Part shown: one piece after another, positions 776 through 64,000 of the stretch | Layout: the number at the start of each line of letters is the position of its first letter | Position numbering within the stretch: the first letter of the stretch is position 1 | Assembly (NCBI GenBank): GCA_963849985.1 | Contig: CAWKJY010000029.1 | Location: 140,114 to 204,113, forward strand | Length of the DNA stretch: 64,000 nucleotides | DNA from: an uncultured Prolixibacteraceae bacterium | GTDB taxonomy: Bacteria > Bacteroidota > Bacteroidia > Bacteroidales > Prolixibacteraceae | Reading direction: 5' to 3' | Position numbers and translations under genes: made by a program | Notes under the pieces: generated by a model | Databases searched by the model: none | Seen by the model: the letters and a program-made list of their open reading frames with translations, nothing else | What the model was told of the DNA's origin: nothing

Positions 776-851
776 TGGTGACTCAGCTGGGGCTCGAACC
801 CAGGACCCCATCCTTAAAAGGGATGTGCTCTACCAGCTGAGCTACTGAGTC
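776..851 (-). tRNA. tRNA-Lys (UUU)
   Basis: Reverse complement GACTCAGTAGCTCAGCTGGTAGAGCACATCCCTTTTAAGGATGGGGTCCTGGGTTCGAGCCCCAGCTGAGTCACCA: 76 nt cloverleaf, anticodon TTT, GGTTCGA T-loop, encoded CCA. Confidence 0.97.
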
Positions 852-4136: not shown

Positions 4137-6112
4137 ATGAGTAGCAACAATAACAGCGATAAATTTAACGGAAATTCGTCTCCAACAGGAACACAAAAAG
4201 GGGGCCTGGATATCCTCGAATTCCTTAAATCAGGACCAGAAAAAAGATTTACTTCGATTATTAACTGCAGGTCAGTGTAGATGATGGGAAATCAACACTG
4301 ATCGGACGTTTAATGTACGACAGTAAAATGTTGTACGAAGATCAACTGGCTGCTCTTGAACGCGATAGTAAACGTGTTGGCCATGCCGGAGAAGATATTG
4401 ATTATGCACTTTTACTTGATGGATTAAAAGCTGAACGTGAACAGGGAATAACCATTGATGTTGCATACCGTTATTTTTCAACTGCTAAAAGAAAATTTAT
4501 TATTGCTGACACACCCGGACATGAACAGTACACACGTAATATGATCACCGGTGGTTCAACAGCCAACCTGGCAATTATTCTTATTGATGCCCGTTACGGT
4601 GTAATAACTCAAACCAAACGGCACACCTATTTAGCCAACTTACTGGGAATAAAACATATCGTTGTTGCTATCAACAAAATGGATTTGGTTGACTTCAGCA
4701 ACGATGTTTTTGAAAAGATACGCAAAGACTACGAAAATTTTGTTGCACAACTTGACGTTCCCGATGTTCGTTTTATCCCAATTTCGGCATTAAAGGGTGA
4801 CAATGTCGTTGAAACTTCTGATCGTATGCCATGGTATCACGGACCTTCAATGCTTGAATTCCTGGAAACGGTTCACATTAGCAGCGACCGAAATTTTACA
4901 GATCTGCGTTATCCGGTTCAATATGTTTTACGCCCCGATATTAAATTTCGAGGTTTTTCAACTTCAGTTGCTTCGGGCATTATTACAAAAGGCGATGAAG
5001 TAATGGTACTCCCCTCTTTAAAAAAGTCGAAAGTAAAATCAATTGAAACCTACGATGGTGAACTGGAATATGCTTATCCTCCACAATCGGTAACAGTTAC
5101 ACTTGAAGACGAAATTGATATTTCACGAGGTGACATGCTGGTTCATCCTGACAATTTACCAAGAATTGAACGCCAGTTTGAAGCCATGCTTGTTTGGATG
5201 GATGAAACGCCCATGAATCTTTCCACACAGTTTTATATCAAACAGGCTAATAATAACACAAAAGCCCGTATCGATCAGGTAAAATACAAAGTTGATGTAA
5301 ATACGCTGGAAAAACACAGCATTGAAAAGTTCAGTTTAAATGAAATAGGGCGTGTGGTAATAACTACTACGAAACCACTGTTTTTCGACCCATATAAAAA
5401 GAACAAACAAACCGGTTCATTTATTCTGATCGATCCGGTAACTCATAATACCTGTGCAGTTGGAATGATCATCGATAGGTTAGAAAGTAAAAACCTTCCA
5501 TCGAGAATCACAGATACCGACCGTGAAAAAATTGCCCAGGGAAAATCACTGATTCAACAAACTGAATATCAACAAAAATATAACCAGAAAGGTGAAACAA
5601 TCTGGATAACCGGACTACATGGTTCTGGTAAAAATGAATTAGCTTTTAGTTTAGAGAAAAAACTCTTTGAAAACGGGGCCGTTGCTGTTTTAATTGACGG
5701 AAGTTCGGTTCGCTCAGGACTAAACCGGGAACTTGATTTTTCACCTGCTGACCGGGCAGAAAACCTTCGACGGGTAGCGCATATTTGCCGTCTTCTTAAC
5801 GATCAAGGTATAATTACGGTATGTTCATTTATATCCCGTAACAACTCTCTGCGTGAGCAGATTGCTGAAATCATTGGCAAAGACCGATTCCATCTGGTTT
5901 ATATGGAGGCATCACTTGAATATTGTAAAAAGAATAAGCCGGAATTGTATGAAATGGTCGAACAAGGAAAAACAAAAGATCTTCCCGGGGTTGATCTGGA
6001 ATATGATGCACCAACTGATGCAATGTTGATTTTTAAACCGGAAGAGAACGAGCGAAACCTGGATGCTATTTTGGATTATCTGGCAGCAAATAAAATTTTT
6101 CCTGTACATTAA
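4137..6112 (+). CDS. cysN: Sulfate adenylyltransferase subunit 1 (GTPase) fused to a C-terminal APS-kinase-like domain; two apparent +1 indels near 4228 and 4272
   Basis: Joining frames gives MSSNN...[38 protein letters not shown], then [17 protein letters not shown] and NKMD. The C-terminal region starting ITGLHGSGK is CysC-like. Confidence 0.92.
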
Positions 6113-6115
6113 GAG

Positions 6116-6163
6116 ACTTACCACTTTTTTTACTAGCGAATAGTTTAATAGGAAGTGGTAAGT
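6116..6163 (+). terminator. 11-bp inverted repeat after cysN, possible terminator
   Basis: ACTTACCACTT (6116-6126)/AAGTGGTAAGT (6153-6163). The loop is long (26 nt), so the terminator call is weak. Confidence 0.35.
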
Positions 6164-6307
6164 AATCTGCATCTCTCAAATTTAAGATACATCTAAATCT
6201 TTAAAAAATTTTGCAATTCTAAACTACTTCCATTTAGCGAGTTATTTTGATTTTGTTAAATAATTTCAATCGCAAATCGCAAATCATGATATAATTTTAA
6301 CAAACTA

Positions 6308-6352
6308 AACTAATTTTTTTAGTTGTATTACTAATTATTTTAGTTATATTTG
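6308..6352 (+). promoter_or_regulatory. Two ACTAA-N5-TTAGT palindromes (candidate BlaI-family operators) abutting a TAnnTTTG promoter element
   Basis: AACTAA-TTTTT-TTAGTT (6308-6324), ACTAA-TTATT-TTAGT (6330-6344) and TATATTTG (6345-6352), directly upstream of the blaI-like ATG. Confidence 0.6.
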
Positions 6353-6370
6353 AATATAATTCGTTATAAA

Positions 6371-6745
6371 ATGAAACATCTTACAAATCGTGAAGAAGAA
6401 ATCATGGAACTTTTCTGGGAGAAGGGCGATCTTTTTGTAAAAGAAATTATTGAAATGCTGGAGAAACCAAAGCCGCATTATAATACAATTTCTACTATTG
6501 TCCGATTGCTTGAAGACAAAGGGTTTGTCGGACATAAGCAGTTTGGAAATACTTATCGCTACTTTGCCCTTATCTCCCGTGAAGAATTTAGTAAGAACAC
6601 AATGAAGAAAATGGTTAATAAATACTTTGACCAATCTTATGCTTCTGTGGTCTCAATGTTTGTAAAAGAAGAAAAAATATCCATTGAAGAAATTCAGGAA
6701 TTAATCCAGCAGGTGCTAAATAATAAACAAAATAAGGATGAATAG
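6371..6745 (+). CDS. BlaI/MecI/CopY family transcriptional repressor
   Basis: MKHLTNREEEIMELFW...PKPHYNTISTIVRLLEDKGFVGH...RYFALISREEF; adjacent to an M56 peptidase gene. Confidence 0.93.
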   Translation: MKHLTNREEEIMELFWEKGDLFVKEIIEMLEKPKPHYNTISTIVRLLEDKGFVGHKQFGNTYRYFALISREEFSKNTMKKMVNKYFDQSYASVVSMFVKEEKISIEEIQELIQQVLNNKQNKDE

Positions 6746-7670
6746 CTTTTTGCTATATATTATTGAATCAACTTTATGTGTAAGTGCCTTTTATATTTTA
6801 GGCCGGCTTATAATCTGGAAGGATACCGATTTTGCTATTAATCGTTTTTTTTTATTATCAATTGTTGTTGCCTCACTAATAATTCCGTTTATAAGGATAC
6901 CCTATTTTATACAAACATTTGATACCGCAGGGCATGGTATAATGGCTCCTATAGCTTCATCCAATATTAATCAGTTTCAACACCAACAATACTTTAATAC
7001 CAACGAAACATTAACTGTTCCGACTGTTGACAAAGTGGCTCCTCAAAAATCGGAAACAAATGCTTTTTCAATGAGAAGCTTTGTATTATATATTTATTTG
7101 TGTGGAGTTCTTATATCAATTATATTACTAATTCGAAGCATTTTTTCAGTGTTGATTATTTTTAAAAAGGCAAGGATTGAGAAAATGAATGGATTCCGGC
7201 TGGTAGTTATAGATCTTGAAATTCCCAGTTTTACCTTCATGAAATCGGTCGTAATCTCAAAAAGTGATTTTGAATCAAATGGTACTTATGTTTTAACCCA
7301 CGAACTAGCACATGTGAGACTATATCATTCATATGACCTGATCTTTCTTGAAATAGTGAAAATCGTTTTTTGGTTTAACCCTTTTATTTATTTGCTGACT
7401 AAAGATCTTAAACAAATACACGAGTTTCAGGCTGATGAACATACAATTCAATCAGGAATAGACGCAATACAATATCAACTTCTGATTATCAAAAAAAGTG
7501 TTGGGTCAAAACGGTTCGCATTTGCAAATAGTTTTAATCAATGTCAAATAAAAAAACGTATTACAATGATTAATTATCCAAAAAAACGAAAGTCACTAAA
7601 ATGGAAAGTCGATTGGCATTTCTTGCGATGGCTGCAATTCTTATTGTATCGATTTCCTCATGTACAGTAA
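6738..7670 (+). CDS. BlaR1-like M56 family metallopeptidase/signal transducer
   Basis: N-terminal TM segments, LTHELAHVRLYHSYD (HEXXH), IHEFQAD and KKRITMI motifs. It overlaps the blaI stop by 8 nt. Confidence 0.9.
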   Translation: MNSFLLYIIESTLCVSAFYILGRLIIWKDTDFAINRFFLLSIVVASLIIPFIRIPYFIQTFDTAGHGIMAPIASSNINQFQHQQYFNTNETLTVPTVDKVAPQKSETNAFSMRSFVLYIYLCGVLISIILLIRSIFSVLIIFKKARIEKMNGFRLVVIDLEIPSFTFMKSVVISKSDFESNGTYVLTHELAHVRLYHSYDLIFLEIVKIVFWFNPFIYLLTKDLKQIHEFQADEHTIQSGIDAIQYQLLIIKKSVGSKRFAFANSFNQCQIKKRITMINYPKKRKSLKWKVDWHFLRWLQFLLYRFPHVQ

Positions 7671-8041: not shown

Positions 8042-8130
8042 ACACTATACTACTTACAGAAATATTATCCGTCTTTGGTACTATACTATTACTGATAGTT
8101 TTTATTCGCAAAGGTGAATGAATAAAAAAA

Positions 8131-8537
8131 GGCAGGCCTGTAAGCCGGGTTCTGTAAACTCCCGAAATAAATCGAAAGCTTCTTTATCATTTATCTTGTC
8201 ACAGCATCACTGCCGTGATCCTGCAGCCTACCCCTCCTGACTTCCTTGTGCAAGAAGCAAAGCGAGCTACTTTGCTGTACCGCAACAGCGGCAAACAATC
8301 AGGATATACATGGCTTTGCAACCCGTGAGACGTACGGCTGATGATGTTGCCACCACCACCGGTGCGCTTTTACCGCACCTTTTCACCCGTTCCCCAAAAT
8401 GGTCTCGCCAAATCAAGGTGGTTATTTTCTGTTACGTTGCTATCCCCTTTCAAAGATCTTCCCGTTAAGAAGCACGGTGCCCTGCGTTGCCCGGACTTTC
8501 CTCTCTCGATAAATCGGGAGCGATAAAGCGGCCTGCC
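8131..8537 (-). ncRNA. rnpB: RNase P RNA (bacterial type A)
   Basis: The minus strand has the P1 helix GGCAGGCC.../...GGCCTGCC, GAGGAAAGTCCGGGC, TGAAAAGGTGCGGTAAAAGCGCACC and ACAGAACCCGGCTTACAGG. TATTTTTG promoter element at 8542-8549. Confidence 0.95.
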
Positions 8538-8565
8538 GGTGCAAAAATACGAATTAGTTACGAGT

Positions 8566-59566: not shown

Positions 59567-61547
59567 ATGAAAAATCAAGTTAGCAAATTCAGGTGGGTTC
59601 TTATCGTTGTTTTGCTTGGGATATTTGCCCCGTTTATCTTTTCCTTTACTGAGAAAACAGAGGAAGAAACGCCCGGAGTAGCCGTTTTGTTGGTTGATAC
59701 TGACCGGTCGATGGGAAAAATCAGCAAAAACATTTACGGCCAGTTTCTGGAACACATTAACCACTCAGTTGTTGACGGGTTATATGCAGAACAGGTTCGC
59801 GGACAGGGTTTTGAAGGAAGAGATTTCAATAATTACTGGAAATCATTTGCAGAAAACGGGAATGTAACCCTTGAGAATATAGATTTCAAAAATGGCGAAA
59901 AGAGTACGCGCATTGAAGTAAACAACGGGACCGCAGGAATTCGGCAAGACAGGTTTTATCTTGAAAAAGGGCACGAATACAACGGTTCGGTTTGGCTAAA
60001 ACCAGTGCAAAAAACCGTTTCTGTTTCATTAATTGTAAAAGATGCTGAAGGCAACACTATTGCTGAAAAAGCACTAAAAACTTCAGGCAGCGAATGGCAG
60101 GAAATCCGCTACTCTTTTACGGCTGACAAAACCGATACTCAGGCTTACATTGAGATTTCAGTAACCGGCAACGGCGCTGTTTTGGTTGATTTTATTTCAT
60201 TGATGCGTGCAGATGTTCGTGCAAACGGAAAGTTTCGTCCCGATTTATTTAAGGCGCTCGATGATTTGAAACCGGCATTTATCCGCTGGCCGGGTGGTTC
60301 TTATGCATCTATTTATAAGTGGAAAGACGGAATCGGACCGCAGGTTTCCAGGAAATATCATCCAAACGAAATTTGGGGTGGTTATTCCGATTATTACGGG
60401 TTTGGTACTGAAGAATATATGGAGCTTTGTCAAAAACTGGGCGCCGATCCTTTGGTAGTGCTTCCGGCTGTAACTACAAATCCCGAAGATGTGGAATACG
60501 CCATCGACTGGGTACATTACCTGCTTGACCCGGCCACTACGGAATGGGGACAAAAACGTGCTGCAAACGGGCATCCGGAACCTTATAACGTTCCTTACAT
60601 TCAAATTGATAACGAACCGATGAACCACGAACTTTCGCCCGACCAGTACGCTGAAATTGTAAATGTTTACGGGAGCCGGATACGCAAAATTGCCCCGGAA
60701 GTAAAAATTATTGCCTGTGGGCAAAAACGTTCAAACGATATGAACTGGAGCGAAAAGCTTGTGGATATTGCCGGTGATAATTTCGATATTTTGGGTTGTC
60801 ACAATTATGAATATGAACCCGACAAATACCAAACCGGCGTGCGAAGAATTGAAGAGTACCTGGTTAAGCTGAGAAATTACATCTTAAAATCCGGTCATCC
60901 CGATATTAAAATTGCCATTTTGGAGTGGAACCTCAGCAGAACTTACGACTGGCGTGCCGGAATGCATGCTGCCGGAAGTTTAATCAGTTATGAAAAACTG
61001 GGGCCTGAACTGGAATTTAGCTGTCCGGCGCTGCTGATGCGAAATACCAGCGACGATCCAACCTGGACGGCGTGGATTTACCACGATCATGTTTCATGGT
61101 TTCCGGGTGGTGGCTATATTGTTGAGAAATTGTTCCGCGAACATTTTGCCGAAATCCAGTATGCAACTACTTCCGGTACATTTCGGGAGGTGGAAGATCC
61201 ATTTAAAAACTTTATTGATGGTATTTCGCAGTTTAAACCCGAAGACTGGCGCCCCGGCACCGTTGATGCCATTGCAACCGGAAGCGCCGATGGAAAAAGG
61301 ATTGTTATCAAAGCGGTGAATTATGAAGGCATTAATAACACGCTGATTACACGAATTCAGGGTTCAAAAGTGCCAGAAAATGCCACAGTAAAAATTTATA
61401 CGGTTAAAGCTGATAGAGAGGAAAAAGCCTCACTAAAAGACGCCGGACAAAATAAAACCGGCAGAGTCAACAATACCTTACACAAAAGACATGAAAATAG
61501 AACTGGCGCCTTATTCGGTTATGATTGTGGAAATTATGGCCAATTAG
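59567..61547 (+). CDS. GH51-like glycoside hydrolase with carbohydrate-binding-like insertion; +1 indel near 61450 (true stop probably 61545-61547)
   Basis: IYGQFLEH, IRWPGG, IDNEP, ILEWN. The corrected C-terminus reads IKPAESTIPYTKDMKIELAPYSVMIVEIMAN*. Confidence 0.82.
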
Positions 61548-61835
61548 ATGATTTTTTAGCCGGATTTTTTAAATTTGTTATCGGAAGCCCAGTGACACTC
61601 AGAAAGAACCGCAGCGATGGACGCCACCCCAGGATTTCAGAAATATAGTGTATATTAAACAAATAATGAAAGGTTCTTTTTACAATACAATTTTATTGGA
61701 AATAACACCTTTTGTTATTCATATAGAAAAAATAATAGGAATAAAAGTTTTATTACACATACGTTGGCATTAATACGGAACGAATTTTGATATTTCAATA
61801 AAATGTATTTACTTTGTAATAACATTTAAGAAATT

Positions 61836-62081
61836 ATGGAAACATCAATAATCAAAATCGGAAATTCAAAAGGGCTTCGTTTGAGCAAGACCATTTTGGA
61901 AAAATATAACATCAAGGACAAAGTGGAACTTATTCTTGAAAAAGGACAAATAATCCTCAAACCAATTGCTCTACCGAGAAAAAATTGGGAAAAGGAATTT
62001 AAAAAAATGAGTGAAAACGGAGACGACAAGTTGCTTATGAACGATGTTTTCGAGGACGAAAATCTTGAGGAATGGATTTAA
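61836..62081 (+). CDS. AbrB/MazE/SpoVT-type antitoxin
   Basis: IIKIGNSKGLRLSK N-terminal motif, acidic C-terminus; overlaps the toxin start. Confidence 0.92.
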   Translation: METSIIKIGNSKGLRLSKTILEKYNIKDKVELILEKGQIILKPIALPRKNWEKEFKKMSENGDDKLLMNDVFEDENLEEWI

Positions 62082-62395
62082 AACAATACTCAATTGTTCT
62101 TGTCAATCTTGACCCGACCATTGGAAGCGAAATAAAAAAGACTAGACCTTGTGTAATCATTTCACCAAATGAAATGAACAAGTATCTGAACACGATAGTT
62201 CTTGCTCCAATGACAACTAATCTAAAAAAATACCCAACTAGAGTTTCGGTCAAACACAACGGGAAAAAAGGAATGGTTGCAATTGACCAAATTCGGACAG
62301 TTGACAAAACCAGAATAATCCGAGTTTTTGAAAACCTAACCGAAACGGAAATTGGAAAATGCAAAGAAGTAATAAAAGAAACCTTTGTTGACTAA
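62072..62395 (+). CDS. PemK/MazF family endoribonuclease toxin
   Basis: VNLDPTIGSEIKKTRPCVIISP, APMTT, DQIRTVDKTR. Confidence 0.93.
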   Translation: MDLKQYSIVLVNLDPTIGSEIKKTRPCVIISPNEMNKYLNTIVLAPMTTNLKKYPTRVSVKHNGKKGMVAIDQIRTVDKTRIIRVFENLTETEIGKCKEVIKETFVD

Positions 62396-62407
62396 AAAAA
62401 CAAGTAC

Positions 62408-62543
62408 TAATGCCAACAATGGCTATAAGTAATTGCTTGTTCTCGCCTACTTCTGAAAATCCTAGCGGATTTTCAGTTCGGTGTGTACTTGCAAAGTTAA
62501 GTGATAACCCACGCAACTACTCATAGCCGAGACCGTTAGCTGC
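62408..62543 (+). other. attC-like recombination site
   Basis: GCCAAC...GGCTATAAGTAATTGC (62421-62436) / GCAACTACTCATAGCC (62513-62528)...GTTAGC, with an internal hairpin CTGAAAATCC-TAGC-GGATTTTCAG (62453-62476). Confidence 0.65.
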
Positions 62544-62929
62544 ATGGCAAAACCCCTAGTCCTCATTCTAAAAGGACTTCAGACGTACAAGCAAGAGTTG
62601 AATCCTTTGTAAACACGTTCCGCAAAATTCAATATCAGTCTGAAATCCATAATGCGGAAAGAGTCTGCAAAGATAAAACTCAGAGACATCAAGCAAATTT
62701 TAAAGTCACATTTGAAGCTTGAAAACCGGTAACTCCAAATGAATCTTCAGCTTAGTTTGATGGTTTTGTTTAGAACAATGTGTGAATTATGTAATTTTTT
62801 TTGATAATTGTGTAAGACCAGTTTCGAAAATAAATTACAATTTAAGCTGAATTTATTATGTGAAAACTAACGACTAATATCCAGGCTAGTAAACACTATT
62901 CCTGTAAGAGCATGATTCAATAAAATTCA

Positions 62930-64000
62930 ATGAAAAAGGCAGAAGACAAATTTTTCAATAAATATCTTCCCAAGTCTCCGACAGGAATTCAGGGGTTTGA
63001 TGAAATAACCTCCGGTGGATTACCTAAAGGCAGACCCACCCTGGTATGTGGTGGGGCAGGCTGCGGGAAAACACTTTTTGGAATAGAGTTCCTGGTACGC
63101 GGAGCAACTCAGTTTAACGAACCGGGTGTTTTAATGTCATTCGAAGAAACTAATGAGGAATTAATCATAAATGTAACTTCCCTGGGTTTTGATCTTGAAG
63201 ATCTTATTAAAAATAAAAAAATAGCACTTGATCATGTTCATATTGAGCGTAGTGAAATAGAAGAGACCGGTGAATACGATTTAGAGGGATTATTTATACG
63301 ACTTGGTTATGCTATTGATTCAATCGGAGCAAAGCGCGTTGTATTAGATACAATTGAATCACTGTTTGCCGGATTGCCAAACCAACTTATCTTACGTGCC
63401 GAACTACGCCGCTTGTTTCGCTGGTTAAAAGATAAGGGTGTTACTGCAATTATAACAGGTGAGCGTGGAGAAGAAACACTTACCAGGCAAGGTCTGGAAG
63501 AATATGTTTCTGATTGTGTTATTATGCTCGATCACCGGGTAAATGAACAGACGTCTACACGTCGTTTACGTGTTGTTAAGTATCGTGGTTCAATACATGG
63601 TACTAATGAGTATCCGTTTCTTATTGATGAAAATGGAGTTTCGGTGTTACCTGTGACTTCATTAGGATTAAAACATATTGTTTCAAATAAAAGGATATCA
63701 AGTGGAATAAAAAAACTTGATGAAATGCTTGAAGGAAAGGGTTATTACCGCGGTAGTACTATTCTTGTTTCCGGTACTTCGGGGGTAGGAAAAACCAGTA
63801 TATCAGCTCACTTTGCCGAGGCAGCATGTAAACGGGGTGAACGTGTACTGTATTTCTGTTTTGAAGAATCACCAAATCAGTTAATGCGTAATATGCTCTC
63901 TATCGGAATTAAATTGGAACCCTGGGTAAAAAACGGGCTGTTACAAATCCATGCAACCCGTCCGACATTTTACGGTCTGGAAATGCATCTTGCTAAAACG
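62930..64000 (+). CDS. kaiC: Circadian clock ATPase KaiC homolog (partial, runs off the window)
   Basis: Manual translation: PTGIQGFDEITSGGLPKGRPTLVCGGAGCGKT, SFEET, RVVLDTIESLF, EEYVSDCVI.LDHR, KYRGS.HGTNEYPF; second P-loop GTSGVGKT, FEESP. Absent from the ORF track. Confidence 0.93.
   Translation, partial: MKKAEDKFFNKYLPKSPTGIQGFDEITSGGLPKGRPTLVCGGAGCGKTLFGIEFLVRGATQFNEPGVLMSFEETNEELIINVTSLGFDLEDLIKNKKIALDHVHIERSEIEETGEYDLEGLFIRLGYAIDSIGAKRVVLDTIESLFAGLPNQLILRAELRRLFRWLKDKGVTAIITGERGEETLTRQGLEEYVSDCVIMLDHRVNEQTSTRRLRVVKYRGSIHGTNEYPFLIDENGVSVLPVTSLGLKHIVSNKRISSGIKKLDEMLEGKGYYRGSTILVSGTSGVGKTSISAHFAEAACKRGERVLYFCFEESPNQLMRNMLSIGIKLEPWVKNGLLQIHATRPTFYGLEMHLAKT

Follow-up and report, generated by a model that had tools for sequence, protein, structure and literature searches.

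The window analysed here is a stretch of 64,000 nt from an uncultured Prolixibacteraceae bacterium, and its subject is an imperfect palindrome that folds back on itself between a mazEF toxin-antitoxin gene pair and a kaiC gene. The fold-back is very probably an attC-type site, the recombination site of an integron-style mazEF cassette (61764-62535) that lies alone in its chromosome and whose site belongs to a family widespread in Bacteroidota. This reading, drawn from sequence comparison, is built on: (i) a long covarying helix with a pronounced bias for the bottom strand, (ii) cassette boundaries at which homology to other mazEF copies begins, (iii) arrays in which the cores of successive sites complement each other and (iv) a tyrosine recombinase gene that adjoins the arrays.

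The fold-back and the mazEF cassette

The sequence-only reading of the window described two arms that pair at 14 of 16 positions with A-C mismatches, asymmetric spacers and a perfect 10-bp hairpin between the arms, all of which are present where it placed them (Table 1). Both mismatches set an A of the 5' arm against a C of the 3' arm on the top strand, and are G·T pairs on the bottom strand. Folded as single-stranded DNA (ssDNA) without constraint, the top strand of the site reaches a minimum free energy (MFE) of -19.2 kcal/mol (z -3.1) and the bottom strand -26.2 kcal/mol (z -5.0); when pairing of the 16-bp arms is imposed, they reach -17.0 and -23.1 kcal/mol, respectively. The bottom-strand folding bias that had been claimed is thus borne out, the top strand folding less well by about 6 kcal/mol.

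The bottom-strand spacers of the window site measure 6 nt (GGTCTC) and 3 nt (ATT), departing from the 5-6 unpaired nt per arm that characterise attC sites. Three of the spacer positions can pair, two of them as G·T, such that the GGT of the long spacer lies opposite ATT (G·T, G·T, T-A) and a 3-nt CTC bulge is left on the AAC arm. No base is unpaired on the GTT arm within the 16 bp, in agreement with the earlier remark that the L box shows no clear extrahelical base. The two cores of the window site match RYYYAAC/GTTRRRY in part only, as do the family cores GCACAAC, TTACAAC and GGGTAAC, and the outer 4 nt of R' are not complementary to the R'' of the same site, as expected for an integrated cassette.

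The mazE and mazF genes overlap by 10 nt, and the fold-back begins 16 nt past the mazF stop codon. The gene pair is bracketed by a 14-nt inverted repeat, GTTGGCATTAATAC from 61763 and GTACTAATGCCAAC ending at 62417; thus, the sequence after the upstream GTT is the complement of the core before the fold-back, and these complementary ends give mazEF the look of an integrated integron cassette. The identical MazF protein is encoded on 6 other metagenome contigs in differing contexts, with DNA that is 93-99% identical to the window. Homology in L001, L002 and L006 starts exactly at G|TTGGCA (A|TTGGCA in L006), following a different palindromic site each time, and it is this start, together with the complementary ends, that delimits the cassette. 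L001 and L002 are arrays of short co-oriented open reading frames (ORFs), ParDE among them, with sites of the same design in between. Every mazEF copy has a different site body upstream, whereas the downstream body is kept within subsets (one common to the window, L002 and L005, another to L001, L004 and L006). Sites are thus carried along by the gene that precedes them, which is also the rule in integrons.

Some of the mazEF copies differ at the site itself. At L002:1312-1442 the site after mazEF is chimeric, with a 5' half as in the window, an unrelated 3' half and arms that do not match. At L001:5446-5620 mazEF is followed by a site body unrelated to that of the window, and the same is found in L004 and L006. 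At L003:509-1620 the site of one mazEF copy is interrupted right after AACAA by an element that codes for an IS110-family transposase (DEDD_Tnp_IS110), which recalls the IS1111-attC elements that target integron attC sites.

Table 1. Coordinates of the mazEF cassette and of the parts of its predicted attC-type site (window positions)
Feature	Position	Strand	Remarks
Complete gene cassette (mazE, mazF and site)	61764..62535	+	772 nt; G|TT junctions 61763/61764 and 62535/62536
Left junction GTTGGCA, R'-type core	61763..61769	+	last six bases are the cassette start; 7/7 complementary to TGCCAAC 62411-62417
mazE-like antitoxin gene	61836..62081	+	81 aa (amino acids); Pfam MazE_antitoxin weak, E 0.0034, below cut-off
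mazF / PemK-family toxin gene	62072..62395	+	107 aa; Pfam PemK_toxin 98 bits; NCBIfam MazF match
Putative attC-type site	62411..62541	minus (bottom), the presumed recombining strand	131 nt with both 7-nt cores; 123 nt from AAC to GTT
R'' core TGCCAAC	62411-62417	+	AAC at 62415-62417; followed by 3-nt spacer AAT 62418-62420
L'' arm GGCTATAAGTAATTGC	62421-62436	+	partner of 62513-62528
Central perfect 10-bp hairpin	62453-62476	+	CTGAAAATCC 62453-62462, loop TAGC, GGATTTTCAG 62467-62476
L' arm GCAACTACTCATAGCC	62513-62528	+	partner of 62421-62436
Spacer GAGACC and R' core GTTAGCT	62529-62534 and 62535-62541	+	GTT at 62535-62537

A site family arranged in arrays

Relatives of the site were sought with a 16-nt pattern from its 3' end in a collection of species-representative genomes. 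At least 128 matches are returned (L001 and the window included), with 70 distinct full-length elements among the matches listed, nearly all of which have the same 123-nt AAC-to-GTT length. Most of the recovered elements are from Flavobacteriaceae (Winogradskyella, Maribacter, Polaribacter, Tenacibaculum and Mesonia), and others are from Saprospiraceae, Sphingobacteriales, Cytophagales, Prolixibacteraceae and Ignavibacteriales. Dozens of Bacteroidota genomes (Flavobacteriales, Cytophagales, Saprospirales-type and Bacteroidales-type) carry the ~123-nt element in near-identical form, and its central part is strongly conserved across genera; the central 10-bp hairpin is conserved in the main subfamily and is replaced elsewhere by compensated variants (TTGGAAATTCC/GGAATTTCCAA and GTCGAAAAACC/GGTTTTTCTAT).

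An alignment of 39 relatives on the bottom strand (A1) is the source of a family covariance model, R1. From these relatives RNAalifold returns exactly the 16-bp helix, which is 98.9% paired and shows changes on both sides in 9 of its 16 pairs. None of 500 shuffles attains the whole-structure covariation, which is lost once the partners are shifted by a few columns; the structure of the site is far beyond chance. The two G·T wobbles, whose top-strand A residues (arm positions 7 and 12) face a C in every case, are invariant in 39/39 relatives, as is the AAC, which is followed by an ATT or AAT spacer throughout. In the core, all 39 relatives retain the C-G pair and the A-T next to it, and 36 of 39 retain the outer A-T, while the GGT-ATT spacer pairing holds in 94% of cells. 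The bottom strand is the more stable one in 63 of 66 family members (mean difference -3.7 kcal/mol). Collecting homologous sites and examining them for covariation, as the sequence-only reading had proposed, thus yields covarying arms between conserved AAC/GTT cores. With R1 the window site scores 140.2 bits on the minus strand (E 3e-34) and 26.6 bits on the plus strand, and is the sole match in the 64 kb.

The family model detects dense and strictly co-oriented arrays of 10-13 sites per 8 kb. These include a Xanthomarina locus (L085) with 11 sites in 8 kb, a complete Polaribacter chromosome with 13 in 8 kb and several Winogradskyella and Mariniflexile contigs with 10-13 sites. Plasmid pPP2 of Persicobacter psychrovividus NBRC 101262 (NZ_AP025294.1; L288/L289/L290) carries at least 36 co-oriented sites over ~47 kb; the ORFs of this array are short and mostly hypothetical, and nothing there is annotated as an integron.

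Within the arrays, the 4 bases after the GTT of site n and the 4 bases before the AAC of site n+1 are fully complementary in 55 of 62 consecutive pairs (mean 3.74/4), compared to a mean of 1.48 for the same comparison within a single site and 1.55±0.15 for random pairing. Such complementarity between successive cores is what defines integron cassettes, in which core exchange makes a chimera of each array site. The attC-like identity first suggested from the letters of one site is upheld by these chimeric cores, by the complementary ends of the mazEF cassette and by the mazEF homology that begins at the exact G|TT in other arrays.

One array locus, L039, shows a repeat at 6069-6943: after the attC of the first cassette, which is of toxin-antitoxin (TA) type, the start of the same cassette is repeated up to the contig end. 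This could be a tandem duplication, or could come from reads of an excised circular cassette that were assembled into the contig.

The array-adjacent recombinase and a proposed mechanism

The recombinase that adjoins the arrays was surveyed in 80 loci around its relatives, which were scanned with R1. In 11 loci (L130, L131, L133, L134, L135, L137, L140, L153, L155, L157 and L163) all sites lie downstream of and co-oriented with the recombinase gene, with the first site 0.6-5.5 kb past the recombinase stop codon and none in the 10 kb upstream; two loci (Calditrichales and Ignavibacteriales) have the classical divergent layout instead. Between the recombinase stop and the first cassette stands a simple conserved site, GATATAAC-NA|GTTRRRY, which is found 25-190 nt past the stop in L039, L127, L128, L130-L132, L134, L148, L150, L171 and pPP2 and is absent from the window. 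In some genomes the GATATAAC motif is replaced by a short hairpin followed by 5 nt and GTT. On pPP2 the recombinase gene crosses the record start; downstream of the gene come first CCTGATATAAACAA|GTTGTTCC and next the array.

Two of these loci have peculiarities of their own. The pPP2 platform is complete and lies in the finished genome of a cultured strain, and its recombinase is missing from the gene table used. At L133:11132-11260, right after the recombinase stop, where the attI-like site is positioned elsewhere, the R'-core-like heptamer GTTGTGG is repeated ~14 times in tandem.

The array-adjacent recombinases consist of Phage_int_SAM_4 and Phage_integrase domains, with catalytic R, K, HxxR, H and Y motifs visible in the sequence, and of ~100 extra N-terminal aa that have no Pfam match. 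The integron integrase family TIGR02249 is their best or second-best NCBIfam match at 190-227 bits (cut-off 265), compared to 407-480 bits for bona fide IntI (L193, L196 and L197), and NF040815 ('XerA / integron integrase') is matched at or near its cut-off. When aligned with the structure of VchIntIA (2A3V), the recombinase forms two blocks with 22 aa in place of residues 182-247 (~43 aa missing) and, thus, is without the IntI-specific insertion. Its closest solved relatives are archaeal XerA proteins (5HXY and 4A8E). This insertion-less recombinase and the attI-like site are the obvious candidate platform for the arrays.

In the proposed mechanism, the bottom strand would fold in vivo as a single strand into the AAC/GTT core helix, the G·T/G·T/T-A step, the 3-nt bulge on the AAC arm and the 16-bp helix with its two fixed G·T pairs. 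The bottom strand is put forward as the folded substrate because four of the pairs form on that strand only. A tyrosine recombinase would exchange strands at G|TT, and cassettes would leave as circles and enter at the simple attI-like site. Exchange at the G|TT of R', presumably between G62535 and T62536 in the window, is suggested by the array logic and by the linkage of each gene to its downstream site, and would place the cut within the AAC of the bottom strand, where integrons have it. The acting enzyme would not be a classical IntI, but an IntI/XerA-related recombinase that has the ~100-aa N-terminal extension and no IntI insertion. As no such recombinase is encoded in the window, the mazEF cassette would be mobilised in trans or would be a recently stranded copy. 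In VchIntIA the insertion contacts the extrahelical bases, and its loss may go with the loss of those bases from the site.

Members of both families are also noted in archaeal bins. A contig of 2.2 kb from a Nanoarchaeota bin, L012, carries two sites of the Bacteroidota family, and the recombinase has relatives in two other metagenome-assembled genome (MAG) bins, of DPANN archaea (L156 and L169). These occurrences may reflect mis-binning or cross-domain transfer, and they bear on reports of archaeal integrons.

A solitary copy, competing explanations and known systems

The mazEF cassette of the window is surrounded by ordinary chromosomal genes (GH39, FAD oxidoreductase, arabinofuranosidase-like protein and KaiC), and the host is Prolixibacteraceae/Draconibacterium-like, with 80% identity for YgiQ. 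In the 24 sequencing runs listed, only 0-21% of the words of 60800-63400 are present, which fits a cassette without its flanks. A 35-mer of the window has no match in the genome collection, and a search of a phage collection returns no match. Solitary copies are also common elsewhere (L040, L041, L066, L069, L101, L102, L105 and L108). Because the window site is close to the family consensus, with its 140 bits near the top of the family score range, the solitary cassette is taken either to have entered a secondary GTT recently or to be all that survives of an array.

Several observations weigh against an attC-type site that recombines in the integron manner. In the window, R1 finds no second site, nor does it find one with filters off over 60500-64000, and a candidate at 61642-61765 (124 nt, family length, 11-bp imperfect stem) folds no better than shuffles (z -0.55 and -1.67) and is rejected as a functional site. 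Likewise, tblastn with three array-adjacent recombinases and an approximate IntI1 probe detects no IntI-type or array-type recombinase in the 64 kb. The predicted empty site, ...ACACATACG|TTAGCTGC..., is not found: the predicted junction TTACACATACGTTAGCTGCATGGC and the right-flank 27-mer are both absent from the metagenome contigs. For the bottom strand of the window site, the MFE structure is not the attC-like fold but a competing one, more stable by 3.1 kcal/mol. Among the mazEF copies there are two unrelated downstream site bodies, with the break in homology at the AAC of R'', and exchange at G|TT alone does not explain a break at this position. Lastly, cleavage would fall on the very arm that holds the extra bases of the site, the reverse of what is seen in every characterised attC; thus, the canonical mechanism cannot simply be assumed.

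Other features of the window are recorded here for completeness. Between the arabinofuranosidase-like gene and the cassette, at 61638-61769, the spacer measures 124 nt from AAT to GTT, as long as a site of the family, with an imperfect 11-bp stem that starts from the stop codon of the gene; the interval has no significant fold and no model match, and may be a decayed site. The last ~60 codons of the arabinofuranosidase-like gene look unlike the rest of the protein. On the other side, ~390 nt of non-coding DNA (62542-62929) separate the site from kaiC and start with TTAGCTGC as a cassette would; this stretch includes an AACTAAC at ~62866, one mismatch from the expected partner core AGCTAAC, and no site is detectable in it. 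The KaiC-family ATPase gene (62930-63997, plus strand; Pfam KaiC 312 bits) runs off the window end. A class A RNase P RNA (222 bits; 8125-8539, minus strand) and a tRNA gene (779-851, minus strand) fit the chromosomal context.

Double-stranded Xer/dif-like sites of the pdif-module type, with arms that would be inverted protein-binding sites and recombination that would occur in duplex DNA, are a very improbable explanation. The kinship of the recombinase to archaeal XerA (5HXY and 4A8E) and its lack of the insertion that adapts IntI to folded DNA would suit such a system, as would modules flanked by inverted cores (GTTGGCA...TGCCAAC) and site bodies that are seemingly exchanged at both cores. 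The arms, however, are 76 nt apart, and within an array their sequences vary while complementarity is kept through compensation in 9/16 pairs. The two fixed positions with A opposite C on the top strand pair on the bottom strand only (39/39), the spacer adds two more of this kind, and the bottom strand is the stabler in all but three of the 66 members; duplex binding sites give no reason for such strand-specific pairing.

About as improbable is an ordinary attC of a classical integron, with a canonical IntI elsewhere in the genome and spacers within normal variation. The AAC/GTT cores, the G·T bias of the bottom strand, the length within 57-141 nt and the TA cassettes are all classical (PMC5027507), with the G·T strand bias already known as an attC property (Nivina 2016, PMC5027507). 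Furthermore, the window covers 64 kb of the genome only, and integrase-only elements (In0) in Bacteroidetes are reported by IntegronFinder (PMC9024848). The geometry of the sites argues otherwise. In canonical attC sites, extrahelical bases (G16, T20 and T23/24) are on the R''-L'' arm opposite the bottom-strand AAC, and the central spacer has 5-6 nt per arm (Nivina 2016, PMC5027507). Similarly, when the constrained folds of eight attCs adjoining bona fide IntI were walked, 8/8 had more unpaired bases on the GTT arm, in the form of single-base bulges that in several of the sites are 6 bp apart. By contrast, the Bacteroidota family has no extrahelical bases on the GTT (R''-L'') arm and instead has 3 additional nt on the AAC arm in 48 of 66 members; in the remaining 18, the window included, the walk is cut short by a branched optimum, and the 6-versus-3 spacer of the window is readable directly.

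The classical explanation is also at odds with model searches. A proxy canonical covariance model, R3, which was built iteratively from 11 proteobacterial attCs and is not IntegronFinder's own model, recovers class 1, chromosomal and other attCs from outside its training set, yet at E<=1 it leaves the window and seven array loci with >100 family sites without a match, and at E<=10 with filters off it has none on the window, L085 and L123. Conversely, R1 has no match in the loci with bona fide IntI, and the arrays consistently abut the insertion-less recombinase. The suggestion of a distinct site class with non-canonical geometry is strengthened by the displaced extra bases and by the recombinase without the IntI insertion. 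The accompanying suggestion that standard attC models miss the site stands for the proxy R3 only.

A selfish intergenic repeat of the repetitive extragenic palindromic (REP), bacterial interspersed mosaic element (BIME) or miniature inverted-repeat transposable element (MITE) kind, spreading by transposition, is less credible still. A ~123-nt palindrome with high conservation from genus to genus and many copies in each genome could be such a repeat; however, the copies are strictly co-oriented, one per gene-sized interval, their flanks are reciprocally complementary between neighbours with no target-site duplication pattern, and a tyrosine recombinase gene with an attI-like site anchors the arrays. 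A role as transcription terminator or structured RNA at the mazEF 3' end, which the short distance to the mazF stop (16 nt) and the perfect 10-bp hairpin might suggest, can practically be dismissed, as a terminator/promoter scan finds nothing at 62400-62550, neither window hairpin has a T run after it, Rfam searches at the gathering threshold and at E<=10 match no family there, the long helix in the mRNA sense has A·C mismatches such that selection favours the antisense strand, and the element follows hundreds of unrelated genes with its core flanks always exchanged.

Beyond the window, the attC-type reading leads to a wider claim, for which the chances are about even: that a previously unrecognised integron class is widespread in Bacteroidota (Flavobacteriia, Cytophagia, Saprospiria-type and Bacteroidia-type), with arrays of super-integron size in which strand-biased attC sites of inverted geometry are recombined by a co-oriented, insertion-less IntI/XerA-like enzyme. 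The sites and the recombinase of these arrays both differ from those of classical integrons and seem to have been overlooked. IntegronFinder 2.0 (PMC9024848) reports for Bacteroidetes proper only In0 and one complete integron (Salinibacter), alongside those of Chlorobi and Ignavibacteriae, and a 2024 preprint counts Bacteroidota among the clades 'previously found without any integrons'. Smyshlyaev et al. note that the IntI insertion 'is not fully conserved' in a subgroup of integron-like recombinases. The literature searched holds no description of such Bacteroidota arrays, and one may exist beyond it.

If the wider claim is true, integrons are far from nearly absent in Bacteroidota, and cassettes with hairpin sites can recombine without the IntI insertion, which is regarded as essential for the recombination of single-stranded attC sites. 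Should this class of sites be functional, large cassette reservoirs exist in a major phylum of marine and sediment habitats and go unannotated in finished genomes. Cassette-discovery pipelines, MAG binning and surveys of defence and TA genes would need a second site model. The combination of hairpin logic and strand bias with a recombinase that is without the IntI insertion, and with sites that have no extrahelical bases on the usual arm, would also provide a natural test of how tyrosine recombinases came to folded single-stranded sites.

Among known systems, the integron attC (PMC5027507; Cury 2016, PMC4889954) is similar to the Bacteroidota sites in its imperfect palindrome, AAC/GTT cores, crossover at G|TT, complementary cassette ends that produce chimeric array sites, bottom strand favoured by G·T, length within 57-141 nt and cassettes that are mostly co-oriented short ORFs including toxin-antitoxin pairs. 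The Bacteroidota family differs in that: (i) its spacers are 6 nt on the AAC arm and 3 nt on the GTT arm as opposed to 5-6 nt each, (ii) the extrahelical bases of the GTT (R''-L'') arm are absent and a 3-nt bulge is on the AAC arm, (iii) 16 bp of helix run without a break and include two invariant G·T, and the central part is strongly conserved across genera, and (iv) the cores fit RYYYAAC/GTTRRRY partly and the sites escape detection by the proxy canonical model. The repeats of the Vibrio cholerae super-integron (VCRs; PMC5027507) are comparable as near-identical sites of ~120-130 nt in very long chromosomal arrays of hypothetical and TA genes. Unlike the Bacteroidota element, which spans several orders, VCRs are largely restricted to one genus; their R''-L'' arm carries three extrahelical bases, and they are served by VchIntIA, which has the insertion.

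The array recombinases share the Phage_int_SAM_4 and Phage_integrase architecture of IntI (TIGR02249; 2A3V) but are without ~43 aa of the insertion, score below the TIGR02249 cut-off and have the ~100-aa N-terminal extension. Their genes are co-oriented with the cassettes and have the attI-like site 3' of the gene, whereas the layout of IntI is divergent. The 'inverted' integrons of spirochaetes (Treponema denticola) have the integrase gene in the same direction as the array, as in the Bacteroidota arrays; integrases of the Treponema denticola type keep the IntI insertion, and their attC sites are found by standard models. Xer/dif systems, pdif modules and archaeal XerA are related through the closest solved structures (5HXY and 4A8E) and through NF040815 scores near the cut-off. 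By contrast with Xer sites, which are short duplexes of ~28 bp, the sites of the Bacteroidota family are strand-biased hairpins of 123 nt in cassette arrays.

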